From a virus, in IMG/VR virus record IMGVR_UViG_3300045988_135203, positions 1 to 49,698 of that record: a stretch of 49,698 bases of DNA, one strand, 5' to 3'. The number at the start of each line of letters is the position of its first letter. Position 1 is the stretch's first letter. The notes under the pieces were generated by a model. That model did not search any database. It saw only the letters and a program-made list of their open reading frames with translations, and was not told the origin of the DNA. Shown piece after piece: positions 259-47,386 of this stretch. Position numbers and translations under genes: made by a program.

Positions 259-329
259 AAATTGCGGATGACGAAACCGCAAGAACCATATGTTGTCATC
301 ATTTGGTATAGCTTATGTTTTAAGCTAAG

Positions 330-402: not shown

Positions 403-609
403 GTAATAGATTTTGAGGAGTTGCACCTCACTTACTCTCGTAAGAAATAAGAACAATCTAATTTATTGTTTAAAATCTATAGCAGTTCAGTTTCTGCTCT
501 ATATATTCCGTATTGCTTTCCTTCCTTTTATTAATAGTAGTCTAACGAAAAACAGCGTGAATATACTTTTATCATACTCTAACCGGTATTGAATATGAAT
601 ACTGTTAAA

Positions 610-681
610 CGAGCCAACGGGGAATCGAACCCCGACCTCTGGAGAGACAGTCCAGCACACTAGCCATTATGCTACAAGCCC
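610..681 (-). tRNA. tRNA-Asp (anticodon GUC)
   Basis: Anticodon arm CTGGA-CTGTCTC-TCCAG, T-arm CGGGGTTCGATTCCCCG. The acceptor stem has one U-U mismatch and several G-U pairs. Confidence 0.7.
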
Positions 682-792
682 TTAACAAGACAGGTTTAAT
701 TTCGCACTTAAAATCCTCAATTTTACGCTGTATTAGAATTTAAAATTTTGCAGTTCCTGTCTTTAATTTATATATTTATTATATAATATTTT

Positions 793-1098
793 TTAAATAT
801 TATCAATTAAATCTTTTCGTCCTTCCGCAATGTATTCTTGCTCTTGATTTTCAAGTTCATTGATTTTAAGCAAATCAGAATGTTTCCAATTTCTTTTTGC
901 ATAATATCTACTTTTGCGGTTTTTACTTTTTATAGAACACATAGGACATGAGCAATGAATTTTTCCTTTAGAATAACATCCATCATGGTTATAATAATCC
1001 CAACCATATTCCTTTTGACATATTCTTTTCTTTCTGCGGATATGCTTTGCTCGCTGTTTACGATAATAAGCTCTATCTCTATTAGGCAAATACATCAC
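793..1098 (-). CDS. Small basic Cys/His-rich protein (putative zinc-binding)
   Basis: 101-aa ORF with CxC...CxxC cluster and a Lys/Arg-rich composition. Confidence 0.5.
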   Translation of the reverse strand: MMYLPNRDRAYYRKQRAKHIRRKKRICQKEYGWDYYNHDGCYSKGKIHCSCPMCSIKSKNRKSRYYAKRNWKHSDLLKINELENQEQEYIAEGRKDLIDNI

Positions 1099-1203
1099 TC
1101 CTATTCTGTTTATAATTGAGGGGCCTGCTTACCCCCTCATGCAGCAGTTAGTCCCTGCTTGCCGAAGCCAGTTATTTAAGGGAACTGTTAGATTGCACCC
1201 TGA

Positions 1204-1285
1204 TGGGGGAGGTAGGACTCGAACCTACGATGTTTCTTTGTCACGGTTTTACAGACCGCTACCCTCGCCACTAGGTTACTCCCCC
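1204..1285 (-). tRNA. tRNA-Tyr (anticodon GUA), type II with long variable arm
   Basis: Acceptor GGGGGAG/CUCCCCC, anticodon arm GCGGT-CTGTAAA-ACCGT, long variable arm, T-arm GTAGGTTCGAGTCCTAC. Confidence 0.75.
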
Positions 1286-1594
1286 ATAAACATATTAAGT
1301 TGGACAGCTATCCTTTAGAAGACGATGCTTCTGGAGCCTTAATAACACCCCAAGTAGTTTACCATCTCTACAAACTACCAAAGATTAGAACAATTTTCTC
1401 GTTTTGTTCATTAACGTCAGATTTTTCAGCTACGAGGTATCTGAAACATACCTTTCATTAAATTCATCCCAAGTGAAGATTTATGCCTTCAACTTAAAGA
1501 TATAGACTGTGTACTTTAGTCTGCCATTCACTTCACTCTCTGAATGGTCAACCCGTAATCGAGGCTTCGGGCGCTACCCGTGCATGTCGATTAA

Positions 1595-1665
1595 CACGCC
1601 CTCAAGGAATCGAACCCTGATTAACCGGGTTGGAGCCGGCTGTAATACCATTATACCAAAGGCGC
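1595..1665 (-). tRNA. tRNA-Trp (anticodon CCA)
   Basis: Anticodon arm GCCGG-CTCCAAC-CCGGT, T-arm CAGGGTTCGATTCCTTG, D-loop TATAATGGTAT. Confidence 0.7.
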
Positions 1666-1900
1666 AAACATGATAGACACCACACTCTCTATCACTCTCA
1701 TACTTAGCAATGAGTTTTCTGCAACGTGGAAGCTATACTCACTTTTTGTCAAGCTAAAGAAGTACAAGTAAAAAGCTACATTTACCTACATTCAGGTGTA
1801 GTTCCCTCTTCAACTACAAAGCCAAGTCATATAAAATGTATAGACTAAACATTCTATATCTAATAAATTTAAAGACGTCCTCAATATATTAGATATATAA

Positions 1901-1971
1901 TTGCGGAGACGGGATTTGAACCCGTGTCTCTAGGTTATGAGCCTAGCAAGGAGCCACTCCTCTACTCCGCA
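1901..1971 (-). tRNA. tRNA-Met (anticodon CAU; elongator Met or Ile2-lysidine type cannot be distinguished)
   Basis: Acceptor UGCGGAG/CUCCGCA, anticodon arm CTAGG-CTCATAA-CCTAG, T-arm CACGGGTTCAAATCCCGTC. Confidence 0.7.
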
Positions 1972-2065
1972 CTATTTTCAAGACACCTTTTGTCAACCGA
2001 AATTTTATTTTGAAGGTCTATTATATTGCTGAAAAGTGTCTTTTTTATTTATTTTGTATATATAT

Positions 2066-2094
2066 ATTATATATTATTTTTTATAAAAAATCAA
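2066..2094 (-). promoter_or_regulatory. Class A promoter upstream of the tRNA cluster
   Basis: Conserved module AAATTGATTTTTTATAAAAAATAATATATAATATATAC. Confidence 0.55.
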
Positions 2095-2242
2095 TTTAAA
2101 ATTTTTAACCAAGACATTTGTAAAGGTTTTGTTTTTACGGTTACTAAACTCTTTACTCTAAACCTACCGTCAATCATCAACCCAAATGATAATCTTTTTC
2201 TTGTTAGAAAATATTTGCTGTTTAAATGTCTTTTATATACTT

Positions 2243-2271
2243 ATTATATATTATTTTTTATAAAAAATCAA
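2243..2271 (-). promoter_or_regulatory. Class A promoter (tandem with 2066-2094)
   Basis: TTGATT-N17-TATAAT with conserved AT-rich spacer. Confidence 0.55.
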
Positions 2272-2273
2272 TG

Positions 2274-2621
2274 TTAAGAAAATGACCAGCCATTTTTCTT
2301 AATAATTCTCATCATATTATCCCTACCAACAGGATTCATAGAATGAATATGAAATGTAGCATCAATTTGCCATCCATCTACATGCTGCTTTTCTTCAAGC
2401 CATTCAAGAAACTTAATATAATCTCCCCCAAACATCCGCATTTCACCCGCATCATGGTCAAGACTTACATCTCCAAGATATAAACATCTTTTTCCAGAGT
2501 AAGAAAGCTCTGTCTCCGCTGTACAAGCAATAATCGCCGCATATACACTTCTAAGCCATGTATAATCAGAAGGTGCGGGTCTCACATCATCAATCCACAG
2601 ATTTGTCTTCATACTCTCCAT
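2274..2621 (-). CDS. Hypothetical protein
   Basis: 115-aa ORF. A class A promoter lies downstream of its stop and the gene is tightly packed with 2590-2865. Confidence 0.55.
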   Translation of the reverse strand: MESMKTNLWIDDVRPAPSDYTWLRSVYAAIIACTAETELSYSGKRCLYLGDVSLDHDAGEMRMFGGDYIKFLEWLEEKQHVDGWQIDATFHIHSMNPVGRDNMMRIIKKNGWSFS

Positions 2622-2865
2622 CCTCTTTCATAACTTCAATTATACCCTGATGTATAAGATAACGTTCCCATTTTTCTGGATGCTCATTACTTCCTACTAA
2701 AGTAGTAAGCATTTCTGGGGTGTATAATCCTAAATCTCCAGGAGGATTAATACTAAATATATTTGCCGCTTTCTTTACTGCAGCTCTGAGCATTCTTACT
2801 TTTTTCTCTAAGTGAAGAATTTGTGTATACAAAACTTCTTCTCTCGTCTTGGTTAAATCACTCAT
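2590..2865 (-). CDS. Hypothetical protein
   Basis: 91-aa ORF directly preceded by a class A promoter at 2898-2926. Confidence 0.6.
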   Translation of the reverse strand: MSDLTKTREEVLYTQILHLEKKVRMLRAAVKKAANIFSINPPGDLGLYTPEMLTTLVGSNEHPEKWERYLIHQGIIEVMKEDGEYEDKSVD

Positions 2866-2897
2866 TTTTATTTACCCTCTCTTAACTTTCTATAAAT

Positions 2898-2926
2898 ATT
2901 ATATTATAATTTTTATAAAAAATCAA
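2898..2926 (-). promoter_or_regulatory. Class A promoter for 2590-2865
   Basis: TTGATT-N17-TATAAT. Confidence 0.55.
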
Positions 2927-2939
2927 TTAAGAATAAAAG

Positions 2940-3488
2940 CTACTTTTCTTTCCATTGATGGCGTCTTTGGGATTTCCAGTTTCGCTCTCTAACACGATAC
3001 CAATCATCCCACCAACCATCAGGATAATCATTTCTACTACCACGGTTAAATTCCTTAAATTCAGGATTATCATACATTGCCGCAACCTGTCTAATTTTTC
3101 GTGGGCGTGTATGTGGACCACCTTTGTGTTTATGAATTCCTTCTACTGGTTCTCTGCGGAACTCACCACGATAAGTTTTGTTTTTCTTATACCTTTTCCA
3201 CCTCTGCTCAGAAGTTTCTAGTGGAAGATTTTTATACTTCTCTACCCAAAACAAATGTGCAGATTTGTAATAAATGTGCGGGTCAATCTGACGACCATAA
3301 CCATCATAATACTGGTCATTCATGCGGTCATTAACCAGAAAACCCCAAACATCTTTACGAAAACCTCTTGCTAAGTATCCAATAAATTCTCTTTCATTTT
3401 TAGCAATGCGCTGAATAGTTAAGTGCATATAGAATTTATTAAAACTATAACAATAAATTTCTTCTTTAGGCATTTCAATATTGTACAT
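2940..3488 (-). CDS. Hypothetical basic Trp/Tyr-rich protein
   Basis: 182-aa ORF with strong coding composition. Nested antisense ORFs were discarded. Confidence 0.6.
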   Translation of the reverse strand: MYNIEMPKEEIYCYSFNKFYMHLTIQRIAKNEREFIGYLARGFRKDVWGFLVNDRMNDQYYDGYGRQIDPHIYYKSAHLFWVEKYKNLPLETSEQRWKRYKKNKTYRGEFRREPVEGIHKHKGGPHTRPRKIRQVAAMYDNPEFKEFNRGSRNDYPDGWWDDWYRVRERNWKSQRRHQWKEK

Positions 3489-3541
3489 AGTAATCTCCTT
3501 TTTAAATTAAATTATTGGATAACTACCATATATCAAACTCC

Positions 3542-3745
3542 TTATGGACGAAGTATGCCTTCATCTGTCACTTCATATACATCCAAAATCTTCGTATAAT
3601 AACCTTGGAAATTTGGATATTTTTCTTTTACAAACTGAACTGCTTTATCCGCATCTGTAGTAAGTACAAAATTACACATAGCATACGTTTTCAGCATTTC
3701 ATCATCAAGGTCAAAAATAACTTTAAAAACTTTCATATTTATCAA
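3542..3745 (-). CDS. Hypothetical small protein
   Basis: 67-aa ORF with GAGG-type RBS context. Confidence 0.45.
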   Translation of the reverse strand: MINMKVFKVIFDLDDEMLKTYAMCNFVLTTDADKAVQFVKEKYPNFQGYYTKILDVYEVTDEGILRP

Positions 3746-3752
3746 CCTCCAA

Positions 3753-3874
3753 TGCCCAGAGAAGGACTTGAACCTTCACTCTAATAATAGAAACAGATTT
3801 ACGTCGCTAAATTGCAGTATAAGTATTTTACAAAACTTTTTAGCTTCTGCCGCGTCTACTTCCGCCATCTGGGC
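3753..3874 (-). tRNA. tRNA-like gene with ~45-nt insertion in the anticodon region (intron-containing, type II or pseudo-tRNA)
   Basis: Perfect acceptor GCCCAGA/TCTGGGC and T-arm GAAGGTTCAAGTCCTTC with a 3-bp D-stem. The anticodon stem GCAGA/TCTGT is separated by an AT-rich insert, and a canonical cloverleaf is only possible if this is spliced or ignored. Confidence 0.35.
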
Positions 3875-4134
3875 TTAATGATTATTCGATTGCCAATCAG
3901 GTTATCACCCTAGAAGTTTATGGACCTCCTCTTGGTGTATAAAGTCATACTCGCGGGCATTTTTAATTTCCTCTTATCTTTTTGTCCTTTATACGCTTCC
4001 AAAACCAAGCCAGGATTTACTTGCTTTACAGAAAACATTACTTTTCCAACCCTTGCAACAAAGTCACTAACGCTCTTTTAAACACTCGAATAAGCTTCAC
4101 CTATTATATTTATAGCTAGCATATCACTATAAAA

Positions 4135-4211
4135 TCCGGATTCTGGGATTCGAACCCAGGACAAACACCGCTTATAAGGCGGCCGCTCTAACCTGACTGA
4201 GCTAAACCCGG
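4135..4211 (-). tRNA. tRNA-Ile-like (anticodon UAU), 7-nt variable loop
   Basis: Typical TAGCTCAGTCAGGTTAGAGC D-arm, anticodon arm GCCGC-CTTATAA-GCGGT, T-arm CTGGGTTCGAATCCCAG. The acceptor starts with C. Confidence 0.6.
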
Positions 4212-5931: not shown

Positions 5932-6288
5932 TTATAATCCTAATTCTTCAAGGATTGGTAAGATTTTATCTTCAAACTGCGGATACAGTTTATATAAAGT
6001 CTGTCTAGCGTTCAATGGTTTGTCTGGTTTTGTGTATCTTGCACATTCCCAATCAATTACCATCTGTACAAAATCGCTATGTGTTTTTGCTTTTACAGTA
6101 TGATGTTTAGCATGATTTCTGTGAAAGTTATGTACTTTCTTATAGTCAAAGAAAGGATACAAAAATACTTTATCCAGGTCATGAAAAAGACTTCTTACTG
6201 TATTGTAGCCAAGGAGTTCTTTTTCGATTTTTCTAAAAGCTTTTCTGTGAGCTAATGTGTATTTGATTCTTTCTTTGTTTTTAATCAT
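5932..6288 (-). CDS. Hypothetical protein
   Basis: 118-aa ORF preceded by a class A-like promoter at 6346-6374 and an AGGAGAGG RBS. Confidence 0.6.
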   Translation of the reverse strand: MIKNKERIKYTLAHRKAFRKIEKELLGYNTVRSLFHDLDKVFLYPFFDYKKVHNFHRNHAKHHTVKAKTHSDFVQMVIDWECARYTKPDKPLNARQTLYKLYPQFEDKILPILEELGL

Positions 6289-6345
6289 ACTCTCTTACCT
6301 CTCCTTTTCTATTTATTTTTTATTTCTTATCTTTATTACTTATTT

Positions 6346-6374
6346 ATTATATAATATTTTTTAAAAATTATCAA
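6346..6374 (-). promoter_or_regulatory. Class A-like promoter for 5932-6288
   Basis: TTGATA-N17-TATAAT. Confidence 0.5.
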
Positions 6375-6399
6375 ATATTATACATTTTTCTGGAAAACC

Positions 6400-6525
6400 T
6401 CACTTTTCAATCACCTCATAATCAATCTCCCCAAATCTTTCCCGCAGAAAGTTTAACTCATACATATCATTAGCTACACACAGATGTTTTACTTTAAAAT
6501 CGTCTACATAATGAACTAAGAACAT
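6400..6525 (-). CDS. Small hypothetical protein (41 aa), absent from the ORF track
   Basis: ATG with GGAGG RBS 7 nt upstream. A class A promoter at 6587-6615 lies directly upstream. Confidence 0.45.
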   Translation of the reverse strand: MFLVHYVDDFKVKHLCVANDMYELNFLRERFGEIDYEVIEK

Positions 6526-6586
6526 AAGCAATACCTCCATTGATTTGAATGATTTTTAAAAGTTTTTCCATTTCATTTACAAATAT

Positions 6587-6615
6587 ATTATAAAATATTT
6601 ATAAATAAAAATCAA
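6587..6615 (-). promoter_or_regulatory. Class A promoter for 6400-6525
   Basis: TTGATT-N17-TATAAT. Confidence 0.5.
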
Positions 6616-6659
6616 TTAAGATTTTCAAGACAGCAAATTTATTTTTTAACTGCGTACTA

Positions 6660-6730
6660 TCCTTTATACTAACCTCGGATATAACCGAGGTATTGGACTC
6701 GAACCAATATTTCAGGCTTGGAGGGCAAAT
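6660..6730 (-). other. tRNA T-arm-like motif followed by a hairpin (no full cloverleaf)
   Basis: TATTGGTTCGAGTCCAATA then CCTCGGTTATATCCGAGG. Possibly a tRNA remnant or a processing or termination signal. Confidence 0.25.
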
Positions 6731-6778
6731 AAAATTTTTTCTTTTTGCTGTTTCTGTCTTTCTTTATCTTATGTATAT

Positions 6779-6807
6779 ATTATATATTATTTTTAATAAA
6801 AAATCAA
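6779..6807 (-). promoter_or_regulatory. Class A promoter (transcribes through the T-arm-like element at 6660-6730)
   Basis: AAATTGATTTTTTATTAAAAATAATATATAATATATACATAAGATAAAG, a near-consensus copy. Confidence 0.55.
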
Positions 6808-6827
6808 TTTGATTTTATGAAGCTAGT

Positions 6828-7121
6828 TTACAGATTTAACCGCGCCATAAGGTCTTCCAGATTCTTCTTCTCCTGGTCTGTAAACTCTACTGACTGCGCT
6901 GACGTTGTAGTAGGAAACGCAGAATCAGAATCCGCAGACACTGCACCTGTCTCAATCTGAATTTTTGGGCAAGTTAAAGTAATGGCAATCTGTACACGAT
7001 CTCCGCCATCGTTAGCCCATACATAAATTTTTTTCTCATGCTCACCAATAAAATTATTTCCAAAAGACTCTCTAAGCTTTTCTGTTACTTCCTGTTTTGC
7101 TACTGTTCCTCTTGCTGCCAT
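6828..7121 (-). CDS. Hypothetical protein
   Basis: 97-aa ORF whose stop overlaps the start of 7121-8410. Confidence 0.55.
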   Translation of the reverse strand: MAARGTVAKQEVTEKLRESFGNNFIGEHEKKIYVWANDGGDRVQIAITLTCPKIQIETGAVSADSDSAFPTTTSAQSVEFTDQEKKNLEDLMARLNL

Positions 7122-37177: not shown

Positions 37178-37206
37178 TAGTATAGCACATAGGTAGTCAC
37201 TTGTCA
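37178..37206 (-). promoter_or_regulatory. Class B promoter for 37023-37142
   Basis: TTGACA-N17-TATACT. Confidence 0.5.
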
Positions 37207-37306
37207 AGAGGTTTTAATAAATTTTCTTTGTTAATTTCTTAACAAACGAACTACTAGGAATCGCAGTTTTCGTCATTAACTTACACTCCATGAGAACATC
37301 AAGTCT

Positions 37307-37335
37307 ATTATACCACAGATGCGCGGCGATGTCAA
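37307..37335 (-). promoter_or_regulatory. Class B promoter with a ~130-nt leader
   Basis: TTGACA-N17-TGGTATAAT. Confidence 0.55.
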
Positions 37336-37510
37336 TAGGTAATATTGCACAAAGATTAATTATTATTTTTGTGCAACATGCTGTTGTGCAATGTGACGAA
37401 TTTTGGGAAATGAACTAAAATATTTTTGTGCAAGTTTTTGCTTGACAAATTGTTGTGTCTCGTGTTATAATTGAAATTAGGGCCTGCGCCTGCGTCTACG
37501 GCCCGAGGAT
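37320..37510. promoter_or_regulatory. Regulatory cassette 7
   Basis: TTGCACAAA, TTTGTGCAA twice, TTGTGCAA and GAATTTTGGGAAATG, then promoter at 37443-37471 and hairpin AGGGCCTGCGCCTGCGTCTACGGCCCG. Confidence 0.45.
37443..37471 (+). promoter_or_regulatory. Plus-strand promoter of cassette 7 pointing towards the homing-endonuclease region
   Basis: TTGACA-N17-TATAAT followed by the AGGGCC...GGCCCG hairpin. Confidence 0.55.
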
Positions 37511-37674
37511 TTAACGAGAGCGTCATTACTTTTTATGTATTTTTCTCAGATAAACCTGAAATGAAAGTGAACTTATGTTTCGTTTACCCCGGGGCATATT
37601 TCAGGAAGAAAAATTTTTGATTTTTGAAAATCGTTTTGCTCTGGACAAAATTCTTCTAAAAGGGATTTTAAAAT

Positions 37675-38400
37675 TCAGATTACGGATTTTAATTTATTAA
37701 GAATATATTCATCATTTATTTTATCATAATCATAATAAGGTATTCTTATTAATAAAATATTATTTTCTTTACAATATATATCTTTTCTTTCATCTCTTAT
37801 TTGTTGAATTTTAAATTTATTTTCACCACCAAAATATTCAACTGGTCTATAATGTTGCTCACCATCATACTCAATTAATGCTATAATATTATTTTCTTTC
37901 ATAATTATAAAGTCAAATATCATAACATTATTATTTTTATCTTTTATTCTATATTGTTCTTTAAAAGATAAATTCTTGTCCGTTAAAATATTTTTAATTT
38001 TTAATTCTCCACTACTTCTTTTAGCACATCCACAAGAAATAGTTCGAGCATGACTTTGTCCCTTAAGGTGTTCAAGTCTTACTTCAAAAGGTTTTGAACC
38101 GCAATCACATTGTACTTTTACATAAGTTTTATTATTTTTACATGGAGCATTTCCAATTATTGTTAATAAACCATATTTATCTCCAATTTCATATTTACGT
38201 CTATCTTTATCTTTACAATTATTACAACTTTTAGGATTTTTGTCTAAATCGCCTTTTCTTACACTAGAAATTTTTCCACAATTAAGACATTCACAAATCC
38301 AAAAAGTTTCATGTGATTTTGATTTAGGATTTTTATCTCTTTCAATTACTTTCCAACAGCCATGTATTTGTCCTGAATAATCTTTTAATTTTCTTCCCAT
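37675..38400 (-). CDS. Free-standing PD-(D/E)XK (Vsr/DUF559-like) homing-endonuclease-like protein with N-terminal zinc fingers
   Basis: The C-terminal FDFIIMKENNIIALIEYDGEQHY...IRIPY matches RxDF...IEvDGxxH nuclease cores and is homologous to 45384-45740. The N-terminus is multi-Cys. It sits in an extremely AT-rich, gene-poor segment. Confidence 0.6.
   Translation of the reverse strand: MGRKLKDYSGQIHGCWKVIERDKNPKSKSHETFWICECLNCGKISSVRKGDLDKNPKSCNNCKDKDRRKYEIGDKYGLLTIIGNAPCKNNKTYVKVQCDCGSKPFEVRLEHLKGQSHARTISCGCAKRSSGELKIKNILTDKNLSFKEQYRIKDKNNNVMIFDFIIMKENNIIALIEYDGEQHYRPVEYFGGENKFKIQQIRDERKDIYCKENNILLIRIPYYDYDKINDEYILNKLKSVI
37675..38400 (-). mobile_element. Putative free-standing homing endonuclease locus
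   Basis: The surrounding region 37540-38550 is gene-poor, differs in composition from neighbouring early genes and lacks the class B promoter pattern. Confidence 0.4.
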
Positions 38401-38551
38401 ACTAAAATTCCTTTATAGGAAAAGGAGAAACGCATTTGCATCTCTCCTTTTCTTTCTACTTTTTGTATATAATTAAAATATTTTCTTCGTTCCCGTTATC
38501 AGTAATTTCTTAATAAAATTAATACAGCAAGCGGAATAATGATTCCAATAA

Positions 38552-38773
38552 TCATTCTTTATTCTCCTTTATTTCAAACCCCAATAATGATTTAAACATT
38601 TTTCTTTGTAACCAATTAAATTTTTTATTACAAGGCAAAATAAAAAACTCTTTTCCATCATCATCTACCAATACAATTTTATATGGGGCAGGTTTAGGTT
38701 GCAATAAATTACAGTTGTACGGCGAACTCAGTATCTCCTGCGGATTTACCTTTACTTCTTTTTGCATCTTCAA
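38552..38773 (-). CDS. Small hypothetical protein
   Basis: 73-aa ORF. Confidence 0.45.
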   Translation of the reverse strand: MKMQKEVKVNPQEILSSPYNCNLLQPKPAPYKIVLVDDDGKEFFILPCNKKFNWLQRKMFKSLLGFEIKENKE

Positions 38774-38853
38774 TCTCTTTCTTCATCTGATAATCAAGTT
38801 TTGCCATGCGACTTCTCATAATCTGAAACTCTGTTCTTTTTGCTTTTTTACTT

Positions 38854-39105
38854 TTATTTTTCCCCATTCTTTCTATTCTCCTTAATCTTTTTTAATTCAA
38901 TTTCAACTGATTCTAAAAGTCTAATTGCGGATTCATCATCCAAAAAATCACTAACATTTATTGTATTTGGAATTGCAATAACATGTTTATCAGAAAACAC
39001 TTCTGAAACATGTTTAAATACTCCATAGACTTCATCAATACTATTTTCGCCAAGAGTATAAGTAATAATTACATAATCTCTTTTTTCCTCTGTTTTAATT
39101 TTCAT
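38854..39105 (-). CDS. Hypothetical protein
   Basis: 83-aa ORF whose stop overlaps the start of the next gene. Confidence 0.5.
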   Translation of the reverse strand: MKIKTEEKRDYVIITYTLGENSIDEVYGVFKHVSEVFSDKHVIAIPNTINVSDFLDDESAIRLLESVEIELKKIKENRKNGEK

Positions 39106-39401
39106 CTTATAATTACCGTTCCATGCTTTCCTTCTTTTCTCAACCTCTCCAAAACTGGATGGCAGGAATTTTTTTCATTCATAAATACAATAGCAAAATC
39201 AAGTTCTTTAATATAATCATTAAATGCGCCAAAAAAATATTTTTTGCCGGAACCATTATTTTCTGCCCATTTATCTCCCAAAGAATTGGGAGAACACACT
39301 ATATTAAATAAATATGTCCCCTTTATTTCAATAAGCTCATTTAATCTTTTGTCCAAAAGGTCATAATCATCAAGTGTGCCTCCAATTATTCCTACATTCA
39401 T
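39102..39401 (-). CDS. SLOG/DUF2493-like Rossmann-fold protein (YpsA/DprA-like)
   Basis: VGIIGGT ... LGDKWAENNG ... ELDFAIVFMNE ... GTVII pattern typical of DUF2493 SLOG domains. Confidence 0.5.
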   Translation of the reverse strand: MNVGIIGGTLDDYDLLDKRLNELIEIKGTYLFNIVCSPNSLGDKWAENNGSGKKYFFGAFNDYIKELDFAIVFMNEKNSCHPVLERLRKEGKHGTVIIR

Positions 39402-40267
39402 GCGATTGGCTCAATAAAAATTAACTTATCAATATAATCTCTATCCGCACCTTTGAAAATAGGAATTTTATAATCTATTTTCCATTTGCGGCGAACAATT
39501 ATTCTTTCACCAATTTGTTCTCCAAAATAAACATTTGGCTCTTTAATTGTTTCTTTAATTGTTTCTTTTTCTTCTATTTTGATACATGCGGTACCGCGTT
39601 TACATGGAATTGTAAAGTCATTCCAATTAATTCCACATTGAGTCATTAGCATATCTTGAATATCATTACAAGTTTTATCTTTAAGTTTGGCATGTGAAAA
39701 ACAAGCTTGTCCCACCATTTGAATACTATTCCGCGTTGCATCCAATTGCCGCCAATAAATAAGATTAGTTACTTCTTCTTTTGGAATATTAAAACATCTT
39801 GCGTCAAACATTGCTCCTTTTTCTGCGGCATTTACATATCTTTCAATAAGCCTTTTATTTCCCTCTATAAGAGGGTCATGAGTCGAATTATATTTAATTA
39901 TATTCTCAGAAAAATATTTATTAAAAGCCATTGTTGCCATAGAAGCTGATACGGAAGCCATTTTCTGAACCTCATAATTAAACCAAGCCTCTGAGGTTAA
40001 CTTTTGGTAATCAGTTAAAATTAAAGTAATTTCATCTGATTGAGTATATCCAAAAATACAACCCTGAATATTTTCACAAAGATACTTCATTGTCCTTTGC
40101 ATCGTATCCATTAATACAGGATCAAATGGTTTCTGAAAGCCTCGTGTAAAAGTATGAAAAGCTTTTCCATCAAGCCTAATAGCTACTGGCATGCGGCGAA
40201 GTAATTGTGTTTTTGCGGGATTTTCATAAAAATCTTTCATTCTTGCGGCAAGTTCACTATTATCCAT
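39398..40267 (-). CDS. Thg1-like protein (tRNA-His guanylyltransferase family 3'-5' nucleotidyltransferase)
   Basis: VAIRLDGKAFHTFT, YTQSDEITLIL and IYWRQLDATRNSI match the Thg1/TLP core motifs (RLDG-x-FH-x-F, YGQSDE, WRQ-D). Confidence 0.75.
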   Translation of the reverse strand: MDNSELAARMKDFYENPAKTQLLRRMPVAIRLDGKAFHTFTRGFQKPFDPVLMDTMQRTMKYLCENIQGCIFGYTQSDEITLILTDYQKLTSEAWFNYEVQKMASVSASMATMAFNKYFSENIIKYNSTHDPLIEGNKRLIERYVNAAEKGAMFDARCFNIPKEEVTNLIYWRQLDATRNSIQMVGQACFSHAKLKDKTCNDIQDMLMTQCGINWNDFTIPCKRGTACIKIEEKETIKETIKEPNVYFGEQIGERIIVRRKWKIDYKIPIFKGADRDYIDKLIFIEPIA

Positions 40268-40301
40268 TTTTCTTCCTTTTCTTTATTTATTTTATATATA
40301 T

Positions 40302-40330
40302 ATTATAATTTAATTTTTAAATTTTGTCCA
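40302..40330 (-). promoter_or_regulatory. Promoter for the Thg1-like gene
   Basis: TGGACA-N17-TATAAT in a class A-like AT-rich context. Confidence 0.45.
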
Positions 40331-40632
40331 TTCTGATCTTTTACTGTGACCTCTGTATGGTCTTCACTAATATTTGTTTCTTTTAAAAACCAATGCCATA
40401 CATAAGGTTCTTCAACTGTGGTTCCAATATATTGAGTATTTTGTAACACTTTTTCGGGAATCGGTTGTCCTGTTCCAATAGGATTTACAAAAAAACTTCT
40501 AATAGGAGCTGCAGTATCAGTTAAAGCCCAAAGATAAGTGCGGCCATTTATTTCTTTTACATTAAGAAATTTAACAAGTGGTAAATTAAGCACTCCAATA
40601 TCATTTAAACAATATTTAAGAATTCTTTTCAT
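40303..40632 (-). CDS. Hypothetical protein
   Basis: 109-aa ORF. Confidence 0.5.
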   Translation of the reverse strand: MKRILKYCLNDIGVLNLPLVKFLNVKEINGRTYLWALTDTAAPIRSFFVNPIGTGQPIPEKVLQNTQYIGTTVEEPYVWHWFLKETNISEDHTEVTVKDQNGQNLKIKL

Positions 40633-40882
40633 TAAGTTTATCCTCTAATTTTTCTGGAATCTCTGCGCCAATCTCTTCAAGAATTGATTTTGCGGCTAAG
40701 AATTTTGGATCTACTCCATCGGCAATAGATAAAGCAATATACATTTTACCATCTAAATCAAATGTAAAAAATTCAAGTTCTTCATTATCTCGCATAAACA
40801 TTCTATCTCTTAATCCTTTTGGAAGAGTAATTCTTCCTAATGAGTCTAATCTTCTTCTTGCGTTTTCTGGTCTTAATATCAT
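40616..40882 (-). CDS. AbrB/MazE/SpoVT-type swapped-hairpin DNA-binding regulator
   Basis: N-terminal LGRITLPKGLRDRM matches the AbrB-family looped-hinge motif, with an acidic tail. Confidence 0.6.
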   Translation of the reverse strand: MILRPENARRRLDSLGRITLPKGLRDRMFMRDNEELEFFTFDLDGKMYIALSIADGVDPKFLAAKSILEEIGAEIPEKLEDKLNEKNS

Positions 40883-40894
40883 TATTTTATCTCC

Positions 40895-41128
40895 TTAATT
40901 AAATTTAATATTATCATCATCGCTACCATCCCAATTACTACCCATTAAAATATCTAATATCCATGTAGCAATATTAGAGATGAAAAATGCGGGTGCCGTT
41001 ATTAAAAATATTATGAGTACAATTAACATTTCTACCCAGCCTATTTGATACAGCGAATCCGCAGATTGTATAGCCAAAGATAAAAACATAAGCAACCATA
41101 AAATATAAATAACTATTACTAAAGTCAT
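40895..41128 (-). CDS. Small membrane protein (2 TM helices)
   Basis: 77 aa, hydrophobic, with a promoter at 41167-41195. Confidence 0.5.
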   Translation of the reverse strand: MTLVIVIYILWLLMFLSLAIQSADSLYQIGWVEMLIVLIIFLITAPAFFISNIATWILDILMGSNWDGSDDDNIKFN

Positions 41129-41166
41129 ATTTGTATCCTCTTTATTTTTACCTTTAATTTACTAAT

Positions 41167-41195
41167 ATAATATCAAAAAATTTTAATGTTGTCAA
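41167..41195 (-). promoter_or_regulatory. Leftward promoter of the divergent pair at the early/late junction
   Basis: TTGACA-N17-TATTAT. Confidence 0.5.
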
Positions 41196-41200
41196 AGAAT

Positions 41201-41229
41201 TTGACTTTGTCCAAGATTTGCGATATAAT
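41201..41229 (+). promoter_or_regulatory. Rightward promoter for the structural/packaging module
   Basis: TTGACT-N17-TATAAT, then a GGAGG RBS and the ATG at 41253. Confidence 0.55.
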
Positions 41230-41252
41230 GTTTTTAATACTGGAGGTAAACT

Positions 41253-42311
41253 ATGATTAAATTAGACTATACTATACAAACTCCAGAAGAAAGAAACGAA
41301 TTAGTGAAAAAAATTTTGGAAGAAACTCCTGATCCTAGTGAGAGATATTTAGAAATTTTGGCTGACTACCTCGTTCTTTGTATGGAGAAACAAGAGAAGA
41401 AGCAGAAACAAATTTTAACAGAAAATCGAATGACAACTGTTAATAAGAGAGAAACTTCTTATGAAGGTCTTGTTTCCCAATTAGAAAATGGCGAAGATGG
41501 TATCTATAACCTAATAAATGAAAGTAAAACAACAATATTTCAACCAAAAGTGACAATAACAAAGAAAGATTTAGAAGAAATACCTTATTTGAGACAATTA
41601 CGTGATGCTATCAATAGTTGGGAAATAAAACTTAAAAAAGCGCAGGGGCGCGATGCGTATATAATTAAAAAAGCATTGATCGAAATGCGTAAAGACCAAT
41701 ATGTAATAAAAAATGCTTACCGCAAACCTATTATCTTTAATAAAATTAGTCGTTCTAATTTTGCATCTAGATTGGTTGAAGATTTTACATTAGATGAAAA
41801 TAATTATATTGTTCCTAGTGGGGTTTCTTTATGTGACCCCGCGGTTTGTTCATTAATTCTTTGTAATTATTCACAGCTTAAAGAAGAAAGTTGGGGAAAA
41901 TTTGAAGGTGATTTATGGTACCTTATGGAATCATTTGATAAAGTATCTACAGCCGCTTTAGAAGAGTATCCACTATATGAAGAAATAGTAAAATGTAAAA
42001 TAGATGGATTGCAGAATATAGAAATACAAAAAATACTAAAACAAAAATACGATACTACTCATAGCTTAGAATATATTTCTAGCTTATGGAGAAAAAAGAT
42101 TCCAAATCTTATTGCCTCGAAAGCAGAAGATGTAGAATTAAGTTGGTATTTTTTAAATACCGAAAAAGGCAAATATAAAAGATGTAGTCGATGCGGGAAA
42201 ATTAAACTTGCTCATAATAAATATTTTAGTAAAAATAAAACTAGCAAAGATGGCTGGTATTCTATTTGTAAAGAATGTAGAAATAAAAAAAATAAGGACA
42301 AAAAGAAATAA
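41253..42311 (+). CDS. Hypothetical protein with C-terminal zinc ribbon (first gene of the plus-strand late module)
   Basis: 352 aa with CSRCGK...CKEC, a GGAGG RBS, and a plus promoter TTGACT-N17-TATAAT at 41201-41229. Confidence 0.6.
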   Translation: MIKLDYTIQTPEERNELVKKILEETPDPSERYLEILADYLVLCMEKQEKKQKQILTENRMTTVNKRETSYEGLVSQLENGEDGIYNLINESKTTIFQPKVTITKKDLEEIPYLRQLRDAINSWEIKLKKAQGRDAYIIKKALIEMRKDQYVIKNAYRKPIIFNKISRSNFASRLVEDFTLDENNYIVPSGVSLCDPAVCSLILCNYSQLKEESWGKFEGDLWYLMESFDKVSTAALEEYPLYEEIVKCKIDGLQNIEIQKILKQKYDTTHSLEYISSLWRKKIPNLIASKAEDVELSWYFLNTEKGKYKRCSRCGKIKLAHNKYFSKNKTSKDGWYSICKECRNKKNKDKKK

Positions 42312-42356
42312 TAAAATTCAGACTTTCTTTATCCTTTTATAAAGGAGGTATAATTT

Positions 42357-43565
42357 ATGGCAACAAATACTGATACATTTTTCTGTGATAAATGCCAACG
42401 TACCATGAGAGGAACTGAGTTTTATGGTTCTAATAATTTAGAAAAATATCCAGAAGGTAAGTTGCATCAATGTAAGAAATGTCTTACAATGCATGTAGAT
42501 AATTGGGATTCTAGTACTTATATGTGGATATTAGAAGAGTGCGATGTGCCTTATATTCCAGAGGAATGGAACAAATTATTACAAAAATATGCAAGTGAAG
42601 GTAAAACAATTACTGGAACGACAATTATTGGTCGCTATCTTGCAAAGATGAAATTAAAACAATTTAGAGACTATCGTTTTAAAGATACAGAATTTCTTCA
42701 GCAAATGGCTGACCATAAGATGGAAGAAACTATGAAGCGGCAAGGATATGAGGCTGCGGAAATTGCTAAAGTTATTGAGCAAAGTCATATTTCAGCACCA
42801 GAAAGGCCAACTCCTCCGCCACTCACTATTCCAGATAGCAATAATGCAGGTAACATGCCTTTAGGCGCAGAAGATTATTTTGCAGAACAAAATTCTGATT
42901 ATGATATTGATATTGCGGCAGACCTTACAGATGATGATAAACGTTATTTATTACTTAAATGGGGTAAATCTTATACGCCAGAAGAATGGGTTAAACTTGA
43001 GCAACTTTATAATGAAATGATGCAATCTTATGATATTCAGTCTGCGGGTCATATTGATAACTTAAAACTTTTGTGTAAAACTTCATTAAAGTCTAATCAG
43101 CTTTTGGATATAGGTGATGTAGATGGCGCGCAAAAAATGCTTCGTATGTATGATTCATTAATGAAATCAGGTAAATTTACTGCGGCACAAAATAAAGCCG
43201 AAACTGGTGAATATGTAGATTCTATTTCAGAACTTGTAGCTATTTGTGAAAAAGAAGGATTTATACCTAGATATTATATTGACCAACCAGGAGATAGAGT
43301 AGATGAAACTATTGCAGATTTAAAAGGTTATACTCGCTCACTTGTTGTTGATGAAATGAATCTTGGTAATTTAATTGAAAGTGCTGTTAAGACTATGGCT
43401 CGTGAGGAAGCTAAAGAAGAAGATGAAGACATTGAAGATGAAATTATGAGCCTTGAAGATGTAGACCAATTAAAAGATGAAGATTTTGAAGAATTTAATG
43501 AGTTTGAAGAAGATGAAGAAAAAGCCTCAGAAGAAGCGATGAAAGAATACCTTGAGGAGGGCTAA
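42357..43565 (+). CDS. Zinc-ribbon protein with acidic C-terminus; possible small terminase subunit
   Basis: 402 aa with N-terminal CDKC...CKKC. Its stop overlaps the TerL start. Confidence 0.4.
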   Translation: MATNTDTFFCDKCQRTMRGTEFYGSNNLEKYPEGKLHQCKKCLTMHVDNWDSSTYMWILEECDVPYIPEEWNKLLQKYASEGKTITGTTIIGRYLAKMKLKQFRDYRFKDTEFLQQMADHKMEETMKRQGYEAAEIAKVIEQSHISAPERPTPPPLTIPDSNNAGNMPLGAEDYFAEQNSDYDIDIAADLTDDDKRYLLLKWGKSYTPEEWVKLEQLYNEMMQSYDIQSAGHIDNLKLLCKTSLKSNQLLDIGDVDGAQKMLRMYDSLMKSGKFTAAQNKAETGEYVDSISELVAICEKEGFIPRYYIDQPGDRVDETIADLKGYTRSLVVDEMNLGNLIESAVKTMAREEAKEEDEDIEDEIMSLEDVDQLKDEDFEEFNEFEEDEEKASEEAMKEYLEEG

Positions 43566-43567
43566 TT

Positions 43568-45298
43568 ATGGCATTACAAGATTTATTAGCTCTCTCTCAA
43601 TCCAGAGATAAAATTGGTTTATCTGAGGAACGTGTCAATGCTATTATTCCAGTAGCAAGGCAATATATAAGTTTCTGGAGAGAATATCCAGATATTTTTA
43701 TTGATTTTTTATTGAAAGATCGCAATCCACAAAATTTTAAATTCTTCTTTTATCAAAGAGTATTCTTGCGGATTTGTATGCGACATCAATATGTGTATGC
43801 AGTTTTCCCACGTGCATATTCAAAATCTTTTCTATCTATGATGGTATTAATGTGTCGTTGTGTATTATATCCTGGATGTAAATTATTCGTTACTTCTGGT
43901 GGTAAAGAGCAGGCTGCAGCAATTGTAAAAGAAAAAGTTCAAGAAATTTGTACATTGATACCCGCATTTAAAAATGAAATTGATTGGAATCGTGGTGTAA
44001 CTCTTGAAGGTAAAGATTATTGTAAATATGTGTTTAAAAATGGTTCATATTTTGATAATATTGCAGCTAGAGAAAGTTCGCGTGGTAAACGTCGTCATGG
44101 TGGACTTATAGAAGAGTGTGTAGGTGTTGATGGACAAATTCTTTCAGAAGTTATCATTCCAACGATGAATATTTCTCGAATGTGTATGGATGGTTCTACC
44201 CATCCTGAAGAGCAACTTAATAAAAGTCAAGTTTATATTACAACCGCAGGATATAAGAATACATATCCTTATGACAAACTAATTCAGTTACTGGTATGGC
44301 AAATAGTTAAACCAGAAAAATCAATGATAATGGGTGGTACATATCGTATTCCTGTATTAGTTAAATTGCTTGATAAGAATTTTATTAAAGACCTAAAAAT
44401 GGATGGTACTTTTAATGAAAGTTCTTTTGCTCGTGAATATGAATCTGTTTGGTCTGGTACCATTGAAGATGCTTTCTTTAGTTCTGAAGCATTCGACCGT
44501 AATAGAATTCTTAAACAACCAGAAAAAGAAGCCTCTGGCCGTTCAAGCAAAAATGCTTATTATATATTATCTATGGATGTTGGTCGTAAAGGTTGTGATT
44601 CTGTAGTATGCGTAATTAAAGTAACTCCACGTTCTCAAGACGTGTCTATGAAACAATTAGTTAATATTTATACATTTCATGATGACCATTTTGAAGACCA
44701 AGCTATTAAAGTAAAACGTTTATTTTATAGATATAAAGCCCGCAGATTAGTTATTGATGCTAATGGTATTGGTATTGGACTTATGGATTATTTGGTTAAA
44801 TCTCAAATCGATCCAGATACTAATGAATTTTTTGCGGATTTTGGGGTTTATAATGATGAAGAAAAATTTTATAAGAAGTTTCAAACTGTTGACTGTGAGC
44901 AAGATGCGATATATATGATAAAAGCTAATGCACCTATAAATACAGAAGCGCATGCTAATATGCAATCACAGCTTTCTTCTGGTAAAATTAAATTTCTTGA
45001 AGATGAACGTATAGCAAAAACTAAATTGCTTGGTACTAAAATGGGTCAGACAATGACTCCAGAAAAACGTGCAGAATACTTAAGACCTTTTACATTAACT
45101 TCTATTCTTAAAGAAGAACTTATGAACCTTCGTGAAGAAAATGAAGGAGTTAATATTATCCTTAAACAAGCCAACAGGTCAATTAAAAAAGATAAATTTT
45201 CCGCACTTGAATATGGCTTATATTATATAAAAACAGAAGAAGATTCAAAAAAGAAGAAAAAACGTTTTGTTGCAAGTGAATGGAAATTCTTTAATTAA
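43568..45298 (+). CDS. terL: Terminase large subunit
   Basis: 576 aa. The N-terminal region is ATPase-like (VFPRAYSKSF Walker A-like, GGLIEE) and the C-terminal region is an RNase-H-like nuclease (LSMDVGRKGCDSVVCV, VIDANGIGIGL). It sits immediately upstream of a portal-sized gene. Confidence 0.75.
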   Translation: MALQDLLALSQSRDKIGLSEERVNAIIPVARQYISFWREYPDIFIDFLLKDRNPQNFKFFFYQRVFLRICMRHQYVYAVFPRAYSKSFLSMMVLMCRCVLYPGCKLFVTSGGKEQAAAIVKEKVQEICTLIPAFKNEIDWNRGVTLEGKDYCKYVFKNGSYFDNIAARESSRGKRRHGGLIEECVGVDGQILSEVIIPTMNISRMCMDGSTHPEEQLNKSQVYITTAGYKNTYPYDKLIQLLVWQIVKPEKSMIMGGTYRIPVLVKLLDKNFIKDLKMDGTFNESSFAREYESVWSGTIEDAFFSSEAFDRNRILKQPEKEASGRSSKNAYYILSMDVGRKGCDSVVCVIKVTPRSQDVSMKQLVNIYTFHDDHFEDQAIKVKRLFYRYKARRLVIDANGIGIGLMDYLVKSQIDPDTNEFFADFGVYNDEEKFYKKFQTVDCEQDAIYMIKANAPINTEAHANMQSQLSSGKIKFLEDERIAKTKLLGTKMGQTMTPEKRAEYLRPFTLTSILKEELMNLREENEGVNIILKQANRSIKKDKFSALEYGLYYIKTEEDSKKKKKRFVASEWKFFN

Positions 45299-45326
45299 GA
45301 CAAAAATGTTGGGTAAAATATGTTTA

Positions 45327-45369
45327 TTGCTACTATTAATTTTTCAATAATAGTAGCAATAAAAAGCGA
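45327..45369. repeat. 15-bp inverted repeat between TerL and the homing-endonuclease-like ORF
   Basis: TTATTGCTACTATTA atttttcaa TAATAGTAGCAATAA. Confidence 0.55.
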
Positions 45370-45383
45370 AAGGAGGATAATAG

Positions 45384-45740
45384 ATGCGCGCTTCTAGAGG
45401 AGAAATAAAGATAGAAGAAATATTACAAAATGCAGAATTAAATTTTAAAGAAGAATATATATTCCCAGACCTTAAAAGCTCTAGTGGTAGACCATTACGT
45501 TTTGATTTTGTTGTATTTGATGATGATGGTAAAATTGATTTTCTTATTGAATATCAAGGTAAACAACATTATGAAGCAAGTTCAAAATTTGGTGGAAAAA
45601 GAGGATTATATCAGCAGCAATTTAATGATAATAAAAAACGTAGATTTTGCGCTTTACATGGACTTACTTTAATAGAAATTCCTTATACAGAAGAACATCT
45701 TATATCCTACGATTATATAATGGAAAAAGCTGGATATTAA
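45384..45740 (+). CDS. PD-(D/E)XK (Vsr/DUF559-like) homing-endonuclease-like protein between TerL and portal
   Basis: LRFDFVVFDDDGKIDFLIEYQGKQHY...IEIPY, homologous to the nuclease domain of 37675-38400, with a GGAGG RBS. Confidence 0.6.
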   Translation: MRASRGEIKIEEILQNAELNFKEEYIFPDLKSSSGRPLRFDFVVFDDDGKIDFLIEYQGKQHYEASSKFGGKRGLYQQQFNDNKKRRFCALHGLTLIEIPYTEEHLISYDYIMEKAGY

Positions 45741-45748: not shown

Positions 45749-47386
45749 TTGGTCTTGATAGATAGACAAAGACAAGAACAGATTCGCTCCAAAGGCTTTA
45801 GTATAGTAGATACAAGACGTGGAAATGAAGCACCAATAGAGTATGGAAGAATTAAAGTTGGAACTAAGACATTAGATGATGCTACTTTAAATTTAGGTTC
45901 TCTTAAAAAAATTAATCCTACATATGCGGATAAGCGCTGGATTTTAAGAGCTTTAGCAGAAAATAATGTTCCAGTTCTTCGTGAAATTTCTAATTACTTT
46001 TATAGAACTAGTGGCATATATTCTCGAGTATGCAATTATATTGCTACTCTATATAGATATGATTGGTATATTGTACCAGAAGTTTTAGATGATAAGATTA
46101 AAGAAGAAAAAATTTTAAAAGAATTTAATTATCTTTTAGATTATCTTGATAATACTCATATTAAAAAAATGTGCGCGGATATAGCTTTAGCAGTCGTCAA
46201 AGATGGTGCATACTATGGCTATTTGGTAGATGGAACAGATGGTTTGATGCTTCAACAGTTACCTATTAACTATTGTCGTTCTAGATATAATGTTGGCATG
46301 AATCCTGCTGTTGAATTTAATATGAAATTTTTTGATGACCATTTTAGAGATATTAATTATCGTATGAGAGTTCTTAAAATGTTTCCAAAAGAATTTCAAA
46401 AAGGTTATTTACTTTATAAACAAGGTAAATTACCAGTAGATAATATGATGGATCCTTTTGGAACCTGGTACTTACTTGACCCAGAATCAACTGTTAAATT
46501 TAATTTTAATAATAATGATATTCCAATGTTTGTAAATGCTATTCCAAATTTACTTGATTTGGATGCAGCACAGGATTTGGACCGCCGCAAGCAAATGCAA
46601 CAATTATTAAAAATTGTTATTCAAAAACTTCCACTAGATAAAAATGGGGATTTAATTTTTGATGTTGATGAAGCTAGGGATATACATAATAATGCGGTTG
46701 AAATGCTTTGTCGCGCTATTGGTGTAGATGTATTAACTACATTTGCAGATGTTAGTGTAGAAGATATGTCAGATAGTAATACTACCACTACTAAAGATGA
46801 TTTGGAAAAAGTAGAAAGAACATTATTTAATTCTCTTGGTATTTCTCAGAATATTTTTAATACTGATGGTAATTTATCTCTAGAGAAATCTATTTTAAAT
46901 GATGAGGCAACTACTAGAAATATTCTTTTACAATTTCATATATTCTTTGATAGGATTACTCGTGCTAAATGTAGTAATAAAAGAAAATTTGTGTTTAAAT
47001 TTTTTATGCTAGAAACTACTCAATATAATTATCAAACTTTATCTAAAATGTATAAAGAACAGGTACAAATTGGTTATTCTAAAATGTTGCCACAGATTGC
47101 ACTTGGACATTCTCAAAGTTCTATTATCCATACAGCTCATTTTGAAAATGAAGTATTGCATTTGAGTTCTATTATGATTCCACCATTAATGAGTTCTACA
47201 TTAAATGGAGAAGATATTTTGGGCACAAATAAACAAGATAATACAAATAAAAATCAAAATAATACGACAAATAATTCTGGAAAAAATATTAATCAAAAAC
47301 AGTCTAGTGGTGAAGCCGGTAGACCAGAAAAAGATGATAGTCAAAAAAGTGAAAAAACAATTCAGAATCGTGAATCAATGAGCTAG
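45749..47386 (+). CDS. Putative portal protein
   Basis: 545 aa, the gene size and position after TerL typical of portals. The start is uncertain (TTG at 45749 or 45755 after GGAGG). The assignment rests on position only. Confidence 0.45.
   Translation: MVLIDRQRQEQIRSKGFSIVDTRRGNEAPIEYGRIKVGTKTLDDATLNLGSLKKINPTYADKRWILRALAENNVPVLREISNYFYRTSGIYSRVCNYIATLYRYDWYIVPEVLDDKIKEEKILKEFNYLLDYLDNTHIKKMCADIALAVVKDGAYYGYLVDGTDGLMLQQLPINYCRSRYNVGMNPAVEFNMKFFDDHFRDINYRMRVLKMFPKEFQKGYLLYKQGKLPVDNMMDPFGTWYLLDPESTVKFNFNNNDIPMFVNAIPNLLDLDAAQDLDRRKQMQQLLKIVIQKLPLDKNGDLIFDVDEARDIHNNAVEMLCRAIGVDVLTTFADVSVEDMSDSNTTTTKDDLEKVERTLFNSLGISQNIFNTDGNLSLEKSILNDEATTRNILLQFHIFFDRITRAKCSNKRKFVFKFFMLETTQYNYQTLSKMYKEQVQIGYSKMLPQIALGHSQSSIIHTAHFENEVLHLSSIMIPPLMSSTLNGEDILGTNKQDNTNKNQNNTTNNSGKNINQKQSSGEAGRPEKDDSQKSEKTIQNRESMS

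Follow-up and report, generated by a model that had tools for sequence, protein, structure and literature searches.

Two paralogous Vsr-like nuclease genes in a gut phage: a putatively mobile cassette and a constant gene of the packaging operon

Results

Two nuclease genes and their surroundings

The DNA analysed here, called the window throughout, is a stretch of 49,698 nucleotides (IMG/VR virus record IMGVR_UViG_3300045988_135203, positions 1 to 49,698) from a gut phage of about 180 kb, and it contains two paralogous genes for Vsr-type nucleases, named nucS and nucL in this report. The first, nucS (45384..45740, plus strand, 118 aa), encodes a Vsr-like nuclease core and is fixed between the genes of the terminase large subunit (TerL) and the portal protein; the second, nucL (37675..38400, minus strand, 241 aa), is a free-standing homing-endonuclease-like gene. 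From the observations presented below, nucL is likely to be a recent mobile element and nucS a long-fixed, vertically inherited gene.

Both open reading frames were recovered at the coordinates and with the sizes given in an earlier reading of the DNA (hereafter the original prediction), which had considered both genes to be recent mobile insertions. The homology that it proposed between the core of nucS and the C-terminal domain of nucL was confirmed by BLASTP, residues 2-115 of nucS being aligned with residues 127-236 of nucL at 37% identity (E=4e-21), and no third copy of the core was found in the window. In nucL the Vsr-like core (residues 126-241; 37678-38025, minus strand) is preceded by two Cys4 zinc-ribbon modules (residues 1-125; 38026-38400, minus strand), in agreement with the N-terminal zinc fingers of the original prediction. 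The family as a whole conserves these Cys-rich modules, CxCxxC...CxxC and CxC...CxC, which are not of the NUMOD or helix-turn-helix type, and no Pfam model matches the region.

The placement of nucS between TerL and portal genes was also correct. The TerL gene (YonF-like; 43568..45298, plus strand) has PHROG terminase matches, its nearest relatives are annotated as terminase large subunit, 7613 homologues of it were counted, and it is uninterrupted in the window; the portal gene (YonE-like; 45755..47386, plus strand, 543 aa with the start taken from gene callers) matches phrog_2739 with E=3.5e-80. With the gene order yonG-like, TerL (yonF-like), nucS, portal (yonE-like) and yonD-like, the nucS-bearing operon is an SPbeta-type packaging module. 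A DNA search of INPHARED for close phage relatives returned only short TerL matches of 72% and nothing for the nucL region.

Predicted fold and family of the nuclease core

The Pfam family DUF2726, which Steczkiewicz et al. grouped with VSR, DUF559 and 3r3p, was matched by nucS with 27.0 bits, above the cut-off of 24.7, and by nucL with 23.4 bits, below the cut-off. The PHROG families matched by the two proteins are labelled homing endonuclease (phrog_9084), HNH endonuclease or intron-encoded nuclease. An AlphaFold2 model of nucS built from 46 family sequences (pLDDT 94.9, pTM 0.87) has the Vsr/I-Bth0305I fold, and its Foldseek matches, which are weaker, were all to PD-(D/E)XK nucleases. The nuclease fold that had been expected from the sequence was thereby recovered in the model, and the family does include genuine homing endonucleases. 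In the model and in the fold match the core takes up the full 118 residues of nucS, which consequently has no DNA-binding domain.

Five residues (E7, D41, E56, H62 and D82) are invariant in the 46 nucS and nucL family sequences, and the five-residue motif (EDEHD) is intact in 72 of 72 full-length metagenome copies of nucS. They follow the order of E170, D196, H213 and D222 of I-Bth0305I, an equivalence by motif order in which E56 is an extra acidic residue ahead of the histidine; the EDxHD motif was defined for I-Bth0305I and Vsr (PMC3239194; PMC2677866). Single-sequence searches against the PDB gave chance-level matches only, the family profile against PDB sequences gave no match to Vsr or 3r3p but only chance-level ones to a circovirus Rep and a zinc finger, and NCBIfam and PADLOC gave no matches. 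Since the sequence profiles miss both Vsr and 3r3p, the family link is drawn from fold and motif order, and on these grounds both proteins are predicted to be PD-(D/E)XK nucleases, specifically of the Vsr-like (EDxHD-like) kind.

Distribution of nucS

Directly after TerL, nucS was found in a human faecal contig, MT836163 (72% identity), in seven Enterococcus phages (53%) and in Phass-1 (40%), values that track the matching TerL identities of 61%, 49.5% and 44%. It is present at the TerL-portal junction in 47 of 47 IMG/VR loci and in all 75 scorable metagenome loci, five more being cut by contig ends and the two sets partly overlapping, as well as in all ten distinct contexts shown for 24 contigs that encode an identical TerL. 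Inside the nucS clade no empty junction was found among more than 120 loci, and no decayed copy was seen among the loci examined. Empty junctions occur only in sister and outgroup phages, namely Geobacillus E3 (gap of 30 bp), Alicyclobacillus KKP_3916 (24 bp), Brevibacillus Sundance (16 bp) and Bacillus FADO (12 bp). In a neighbour-joining tree of TerL all nucS carriers form one clade (bootstrap 100) that is sister to E3 and KKP_3916, and therefore one gain of nucS with no observed loss is concluded. Full occupancy in the three samples (47/47, 75/75 and 10/10) means that nucS fails to show the presence/absence polymorphism of a homing endonuclease gene. Universal carriage with no empty alleles, which the original prediction had named as the outcome speaking against it, is what was observed for nucS throughout the clade.

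Selection on nucS and its age at the junction

The ratio of non-synonymous to synonymous divergence (dN/dS) was compared between neighbouring genes in pairs binned by TerL dS. For dS of 0.02-0.3 (127 pairs) it was 0.058 for nucS, 0.020 for TerL, 0.050 for the portal gene and 0.113 for the YonG-like gene, and for dS of 0.3-0.8 (10 pairs) the values were, in the same order, 0.046, 0.036, 0.069 and 0.121; in the saturated bins nucS gave 0.085. nucS is under strong purifying selection. At greater divergence its amino-acid identity (0.81) equals that of TerL and exceeds that of the portal protein (0.65).

In some lineage pairs nucS is 90-95% identical while TerL is only about 80% identical. Recent lateral transfer of nucS was considered for these pairs and ruled out as their dS is saturated, and the high identity is attributed to constraint for the same reason. 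Synonymous sites of nucS are saturated, like those of its neighbours, even where the proteins are 95% identical, which therefore indicates long vertical descent.

These data decide against the idea that both genes are recent mobile homing-endonuclease insertions, nucS having entered the classic site between TerL and portal. The homing endonuclease label of phrog_9084, the Vsr/I-Bth0305I fold, the empty junctions of E3, KKP_3916, Sundance and FADO, and a junction that attracts such genes (the GIY-YIG gene described below being an example) would all be in keeping with it. Against it stand the more than 120 in-clade loci with no empty junction, the monophyly of the carriers, the saturated dS, a dN/dS of about 0.05-0.06 in unsaturated comparisons, a composition matching that of the neighbours and the lack of any decayed copy. 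For nucS it is already refuted by distribution and dS, and as an account of both genes it is extremely improbable.

Integration of nucS in the packaging operon

The signals around nucS are those of a tightly packed operon gene. A ribosome-binding site, AAGGAGG, is read at 45371..45377 (plus strand), and in most lineages the TerL-nucS gap measures 13-26 nt and contains such a site. At the other end the stop codon of nucS and the ribosome-binding site of the portal gene overlap (TAAGGAGGT), and the GC content of nucS (28%) is close to that of the portal gene (29%). The inverted repeat that the original prediction had placed before nucS is real, although not as described (15 bp at 45327-45369): it is a perfect hairpin at 45323..45363 (plus strand) with 16-nt arms, 45323-45338 and 45348-45363, and a 9-nt loop. 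The hairpin is found only in the window and in loci L005 and L037 (relatives are denoted by L and a number) and is absent where the gap is 13-26 nt; it is lineage-specific and lies outside any mobile unit.

In relatives, the in-frame stops of nucS are all TAG (40 of 40 in a first set and 104 of 104 in a second), and of the 40 in the first set 38 occupy Gln positions, the invariant Q61 among them. The YonG-like, TerL and portal genes of many relatives also have in-frame TAG where Gln stands (8-13 in TerL alone), the bearers being L020-L024, L026-L036, L047-L051, L004 and many of L184-L255. From the Gln positions, TAG-to-Gln recoding (code 15) is concluded, as annotated for Phass-1. The density of in-frame TAG in nucS of these recoded relatives equals that of TerL and the portal gene. 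In-frame TAG is absent from the window phage and from the groups closest to it, and recoded and standard-code phages are interleaved in one clade.

Sporadic introns and endonuclease genes in the same module

Mobile elements do visit this module. In relatives whose TerL is 99% identical, TerL residue 198 is followed by an insertion, either of 260 bp (L037, 4594-4855) or of about 1038 bp encoding a 246-aa HNH-type protein (L038, 2962-4001), and a group I intron stands after residue 224 in L047 (4672-5202; Rfam 92.7 bits). An intron-split TerL with an HNH gene is found in EF1, and in L017, one member of a 13-member group, a 223-aa GIY-YIG gene lies between nucS and the portal gene (6165-6836; contig shared with L181). 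Thus the TerL-portal junction is a landing site for mobile endonuclease genes, but nucS is not among the movers. TerL is likewise split by an insertion in L043-L045. The YonG-like gene upstream of TerL is interrupted by about 0.9-1.15 kb in L024 (2694-3624) and L049 (2398-3552), possibly by introns or inteins.

nucL lies in a cassette with occupied and empty alleles

The unit that is present or absent at the nucL site spans 37691..38412 (minus strand, 722 bp), and in empty alleles 17 bp (TAATTAAGTTGACTTGA) stand in its place, so that an empty allele of the L149 type reads CCTATAA-TAATTAAGTTGACTTGA-AAAATTCGTAACTCGAATTTC. The left border of the slot is the terminator-like hairpin of the upstream gene (38421..38452, minus strand; AAAGGAGA...TCTCCTTT followed by T's). 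By looking up the small proteins encoded in the flanks, three slot alleles were found in genomes that elsewhere share 97-100% identity: occupied, empty (13 loci), and a third with an unrelated 95-aa open reading frame; the hairpin is kept in all three. The third allele was seen in L157 (1838-2166) and L160 (1090-1418), and the terminator-promoter site is therefore considered a general point of cassette exchange. IMG/VR loci anchored on the Thg1-like gene were uninformative for empty nucL sites, the whole neighbourhood being replaced where Thg1 is at most 74% identical.

An identical nucL protein is encoded on 19 metagenome contigs, in the same slot each time, and 737 homologues of about 240 aa and 50-98% identity were found. 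Among 17 occupied alleles 12 are nucleotide-identical and four are damaged or altered: two have premature stops, at Q11 (L144) and W34 (L052), one has an in-frame 12-nt deletion in the nuclease domain (L147) and one has D178N in the EYDGxQH motif (L151). In the IMG/VR locus L052 (7698-8219) about 370 bp extra, relative to the window, lie between the upstream small gene and the W34-stop pseudogene.

Upstream of the slot the empty genomes are 99.6-100% identical to the window, while the first 250 bp downstream are only 84-93% identical and identity recovers over about 1.5 kb; occupied genomes, on the other hand, are 99-100% identical to the window across this downstream tract. The divergence tract starts in the flank just downstream of the insertion (37643..37690, minus strand) and reaches about 36000. 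In this flank, the first 48 nt past the insertion, 9-10 substitutions are common to all occupied alleles and occur only in them, and it may be regarded as a candidate target or immunity site. The linked substitutions and the tract are consistent with what co-conversion with a diverged donor would produce, and the substitutions may possibly also confer target-site immunity.

nucL thus combines presence/absence polymorphism among close relatives whose flanks are 97-100% identical with co-conversion and decay of some copies, the marks of a homing endonuclease gene of the free-standing kind. The view of the original prediction that this gene is a recent mobile insertion was borne out by the 13 empty loci, the divergence tract and the damaged copies, and nucL is best read as a currently or recently mobile free-standing homing endonuclease gene of predicted cleavage activity. 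Alternatively, its presence and absence could come from ordinary illegitimate or mosaic recombination at a moron-like terminator-promoter slot, as the unrelated open reading frame in L157 and L160, the borders of the slot (terminator hairpin and promoter region) and the entirely different neighbourhood of more distant relatives might suggest. This alternative is improbable given that the cargo is a complete protein, with DNA-binding and nuclease parts, from a homing family of 737 diverse homologues, that the polarised divergence tract begins exactly at the insertion, and that the cassette is nucleotide-identical in backgrounds that differ elsewhere, some copies being in decay.

The spacer beside nucL

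The original prediction had described the nucL region as extremely AT-rich and gene-poor. This holds for the nucL open reading frame, with 24% GC (19% in its C-terminal half) against 32.4% for the window and 30-41% for the neighbours, but not for the adjoining spacer, with 34% GC. The non-coding spacer measures 485 bp and has three perfect matches and one 11-of-12 match to the sigma-70 consensus; its promoter-rich conserved part (37179..37471) contains matches at 37335-37307 (minus), 37207-37179 (minus) and 37442-37471 (plus), and repeated TTGCACAA/TTGTGCAA boxes are operator-like in look. An invariant GC-rich block (about 37480-37545) lies within the conserved spacer downstream of nucL (37179-37675). 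In the alignments of alleles the promoter-rich spacer is resident DNA outside the nucL cassette. A structured RNA or intron around nucL was considered and rejected, as Rfam gave nothing credible there and no match in the spacer 37179-37675, the folding of which was not significant (z=-0.34).

Discussion

Comparison with known systems

The EDxHD (Vsr-like) homing family includes I-Bth0305I, the free-standing Hef and 'fractured gene' endonucleases (PMC3239194; PMC2677866). The N-terminus of nucL, with its two Cys4 zinc-ribbon modules, differs from the NUMOD or helix-turn-helix repeats of this family, to whose structure 3r3p the nucS/nucL family has no significant profile match; nucL is read as a new member of the Vsr-like/EDxHD kind of homing endonuclease with an unusual zinc-ribbon DNA-binding region. 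nucS differs from the same family in having no DNA-binding region and in not being mobile.

Closer in sequence are the 'VSR homing endonucleases' of Herelleviridae introns (phage 113 ORF171 and Stau2 ORF13), which have the same core at 37-40% identity to nucS and are, like nucS, linked with a terminase gene. They are proteins of about 312 aa with long N-terminal regions encoded inside group I introns, unlike nucS, which is 118 aa, intergenic, provided with its own ribosome-binding site and fixed across its clade.

In behaviour nucS is nearer to certain HNH proteins. HK97 gp74 is an HNH endonuclease that partners the terminase. HrdP of Skunavirus, also of the HNH type, shows no specificity in vitro and is required for virion maturation (PMC12967558). 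Like these two, nucS is a small nuclease from a family better known for homing endonucleases and, in an entire group of phages, keeps one position next to terminase or portal genes. The fold differs, that of gp74 and HrdP being the HNH beta-beta-alpha-metal fold and that of nucS Vsr-like PD-(D/E)XK, and nucS is therefore only an analogue, not a member, of the HNH terminase partners; for these partners a role in packaging has been demonstrated, whereas for nucS it is hypothesised. nucS accordingly has the fold and motif of the homing family and fails its behavioural tests, and it resembles the terminase-associated HNH proteins in behaviour and not in fold. The searches made, which covered open-access papers, brought up no account of a packaging operon with a conserved Vsr-fold nuclease.

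Origin of the two genes

nucS and nucL appear as paralogues at opposite ends of the homing-endonuclease life cycle. nucL would cut an empty allele close to the slot, which lies between the terminator hairpin and the following promoter region; repair of the break from a nucL-carrying genome would copy the 722-bp cassette and some flanking sequence, and the copies would afterwards decay. nucS would have arrived at the TerL-portal junction a single time, in the common ancestor of a large SPbeta-like clade (gut phages, Enterococcus phages and Phass-1), would have lost, or never had, a DNA-binding domain, and would since then have been passed on by vertical descent, closely packed in the late operon and under strong purifying selection.

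As to the source of nucS, its nearest phage homologues outside the syntenic set are the C-termini of proteins of about 312 aa in TerL-splitting group I introns of Enterococcus phage 113 and Staphylococcus phage Stau2. Because relatives of the core are encoded in terminase-splitting introns, nucS was probably derived from a terminase-targeting homing endonuclease. It is now probably a domesticated nuclease of the packaging operon.

Possible function of nucS

By analogy with the HNH terminase partners, nucS could assist the packaging machinery as an accessory DNA nuclease or nickase, which is the preferred, though tentative, reading of its present role. The fuller proposal, that a homing core was captured once and is now a required DNA cutter or nicker in the packaging of an abundant SPbeta-like clade of gut and Enterococcus phages, is more speculative still.

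Domestication has to be weighed against the possibility that nucS is a fixed selfish or competitive homing endonuclease that cuts the TerL-portal DNA of co-infecting phages lacking nucS or carrying another allele, with marker exclusion and an inheritance biased towards the linked packaging genes as the outcome. The family and fold are common to proven homing endonucleases, relatives of the core target terminase genes from introns, small PD-(D/E)XK homing enzymes with no extra domains are known, and the correlation between distances in nucS and in the neighbouring genes is only a loose one (Spearman 0.58-0.73), all of which would suit such a gene. It would, on the other hand, find no naive targets among the loci seen in the clade, no low-dS pair points to recent lateral copying, the protein has no DNA-binding domain, purifying selection on a par with that on TerL, kept up after synonymous sites are saturated, is not usual in a selfish gene that has become fixed, and nucL in the same genome decays quickly. 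For these reasons a selfish nucS is considered unlikely.

A function unrelated to packaging is considered slightly less likely again, whether it be degradation of host or competitor DNA, anti-defence, Vsr-like mismatch nicking or an action on RNA (RAP-domain-like). The fixed position and tight coupling of nucS in the yonG-TerL-nucS-portal-yonD operon across very divergent phages speak against it, as does the lack of PADLOC and NCBIfam matches. As for mismatch nicking, the identity of nucS to the very-short-patch repair endonuclease Vsr of E. coli (1cw0) is only 16%, its context is a late phage operon, and no cytosine-5 methyltransferase that could be a partner was found among the genes adjoining nucS.

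Several points weigh against a mobile nucL beside a domesticated nucS of the packaging apparatus. The family link comes from fold and motif order and is not supported by sequence profiles; cleavage activity, the nucL target and the packaging role of nucS are all predictions, the last drawn from position, co-expression signals and conservation. The sister phages E3, KKP_3916, Sundance and FADO package their DNA without nucS. TerL residues D337, D397 and D542 do not vary between phages that have nucS and phages that lack it, and RNase H-like signals in TerL are weak but present (a weak T7-type TerL alignment and weak Terminase_6C matches; the TerL structure model, of pLDDT 36, was discarded); since the nuclease residues of TerL itself appear to be retained, there is no obvious need of nucS for cutting. 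Among PD-(D/E)XK homing endonucleases there are small ones with no separate DNA-binding domain, such as I-Ssp6803I, and the core-only size of nucS is therefore compatible with sequence-specific homing. At the nucL slot, insertion and deletion are not polarisable with certainty, and ordinary mosaic recombination could contribute because the slot also accepts an unrelated open reading frame.

Meaning for annotation and for packaging

Automated annotation labels any gene of the nucS/nucL family a homing endonuclease, as in Enterococcus VRE9 phages, and in one genome this single label hides two things, a mobile cassette with a defined empty site and a stable core-only nuclease that is constrained to the same degree as TerL. 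nucL is a candidate for a new zinc-ribbon and Vsr-type homing enzyme, and the nucS clade is a very abundant group of human-gut phages. If nucS works with the packaging motor, the theme of an accessory nuclease beside the terminase would extend from HNH to a second nuclease fold, and nucS would be a clear case of selfish-gene domestication. Cultured Enterococcus relatives make the function of nucS directly testable.

Other features of the window

The Thg1-like gene, predicted to encode a tRNA-His guanylyltransferase, lies at 39398-40267 (minus strand; Pfam E=1.5e-30), and seven tRNA genes are present at 185-4211, including tRNA-His(GTG) at 329-401. At the head of the packaging operon and divergently placed, a gene at 41253-42311 (plus strand) encodes a 352-aa protein that matches a PHROG sigma-factor family (E=2.8e-49) and has a C-terminal zinc-ribbon (CxxC...CxxC) similar to the ones in endonuclease VII and HNH proteins.

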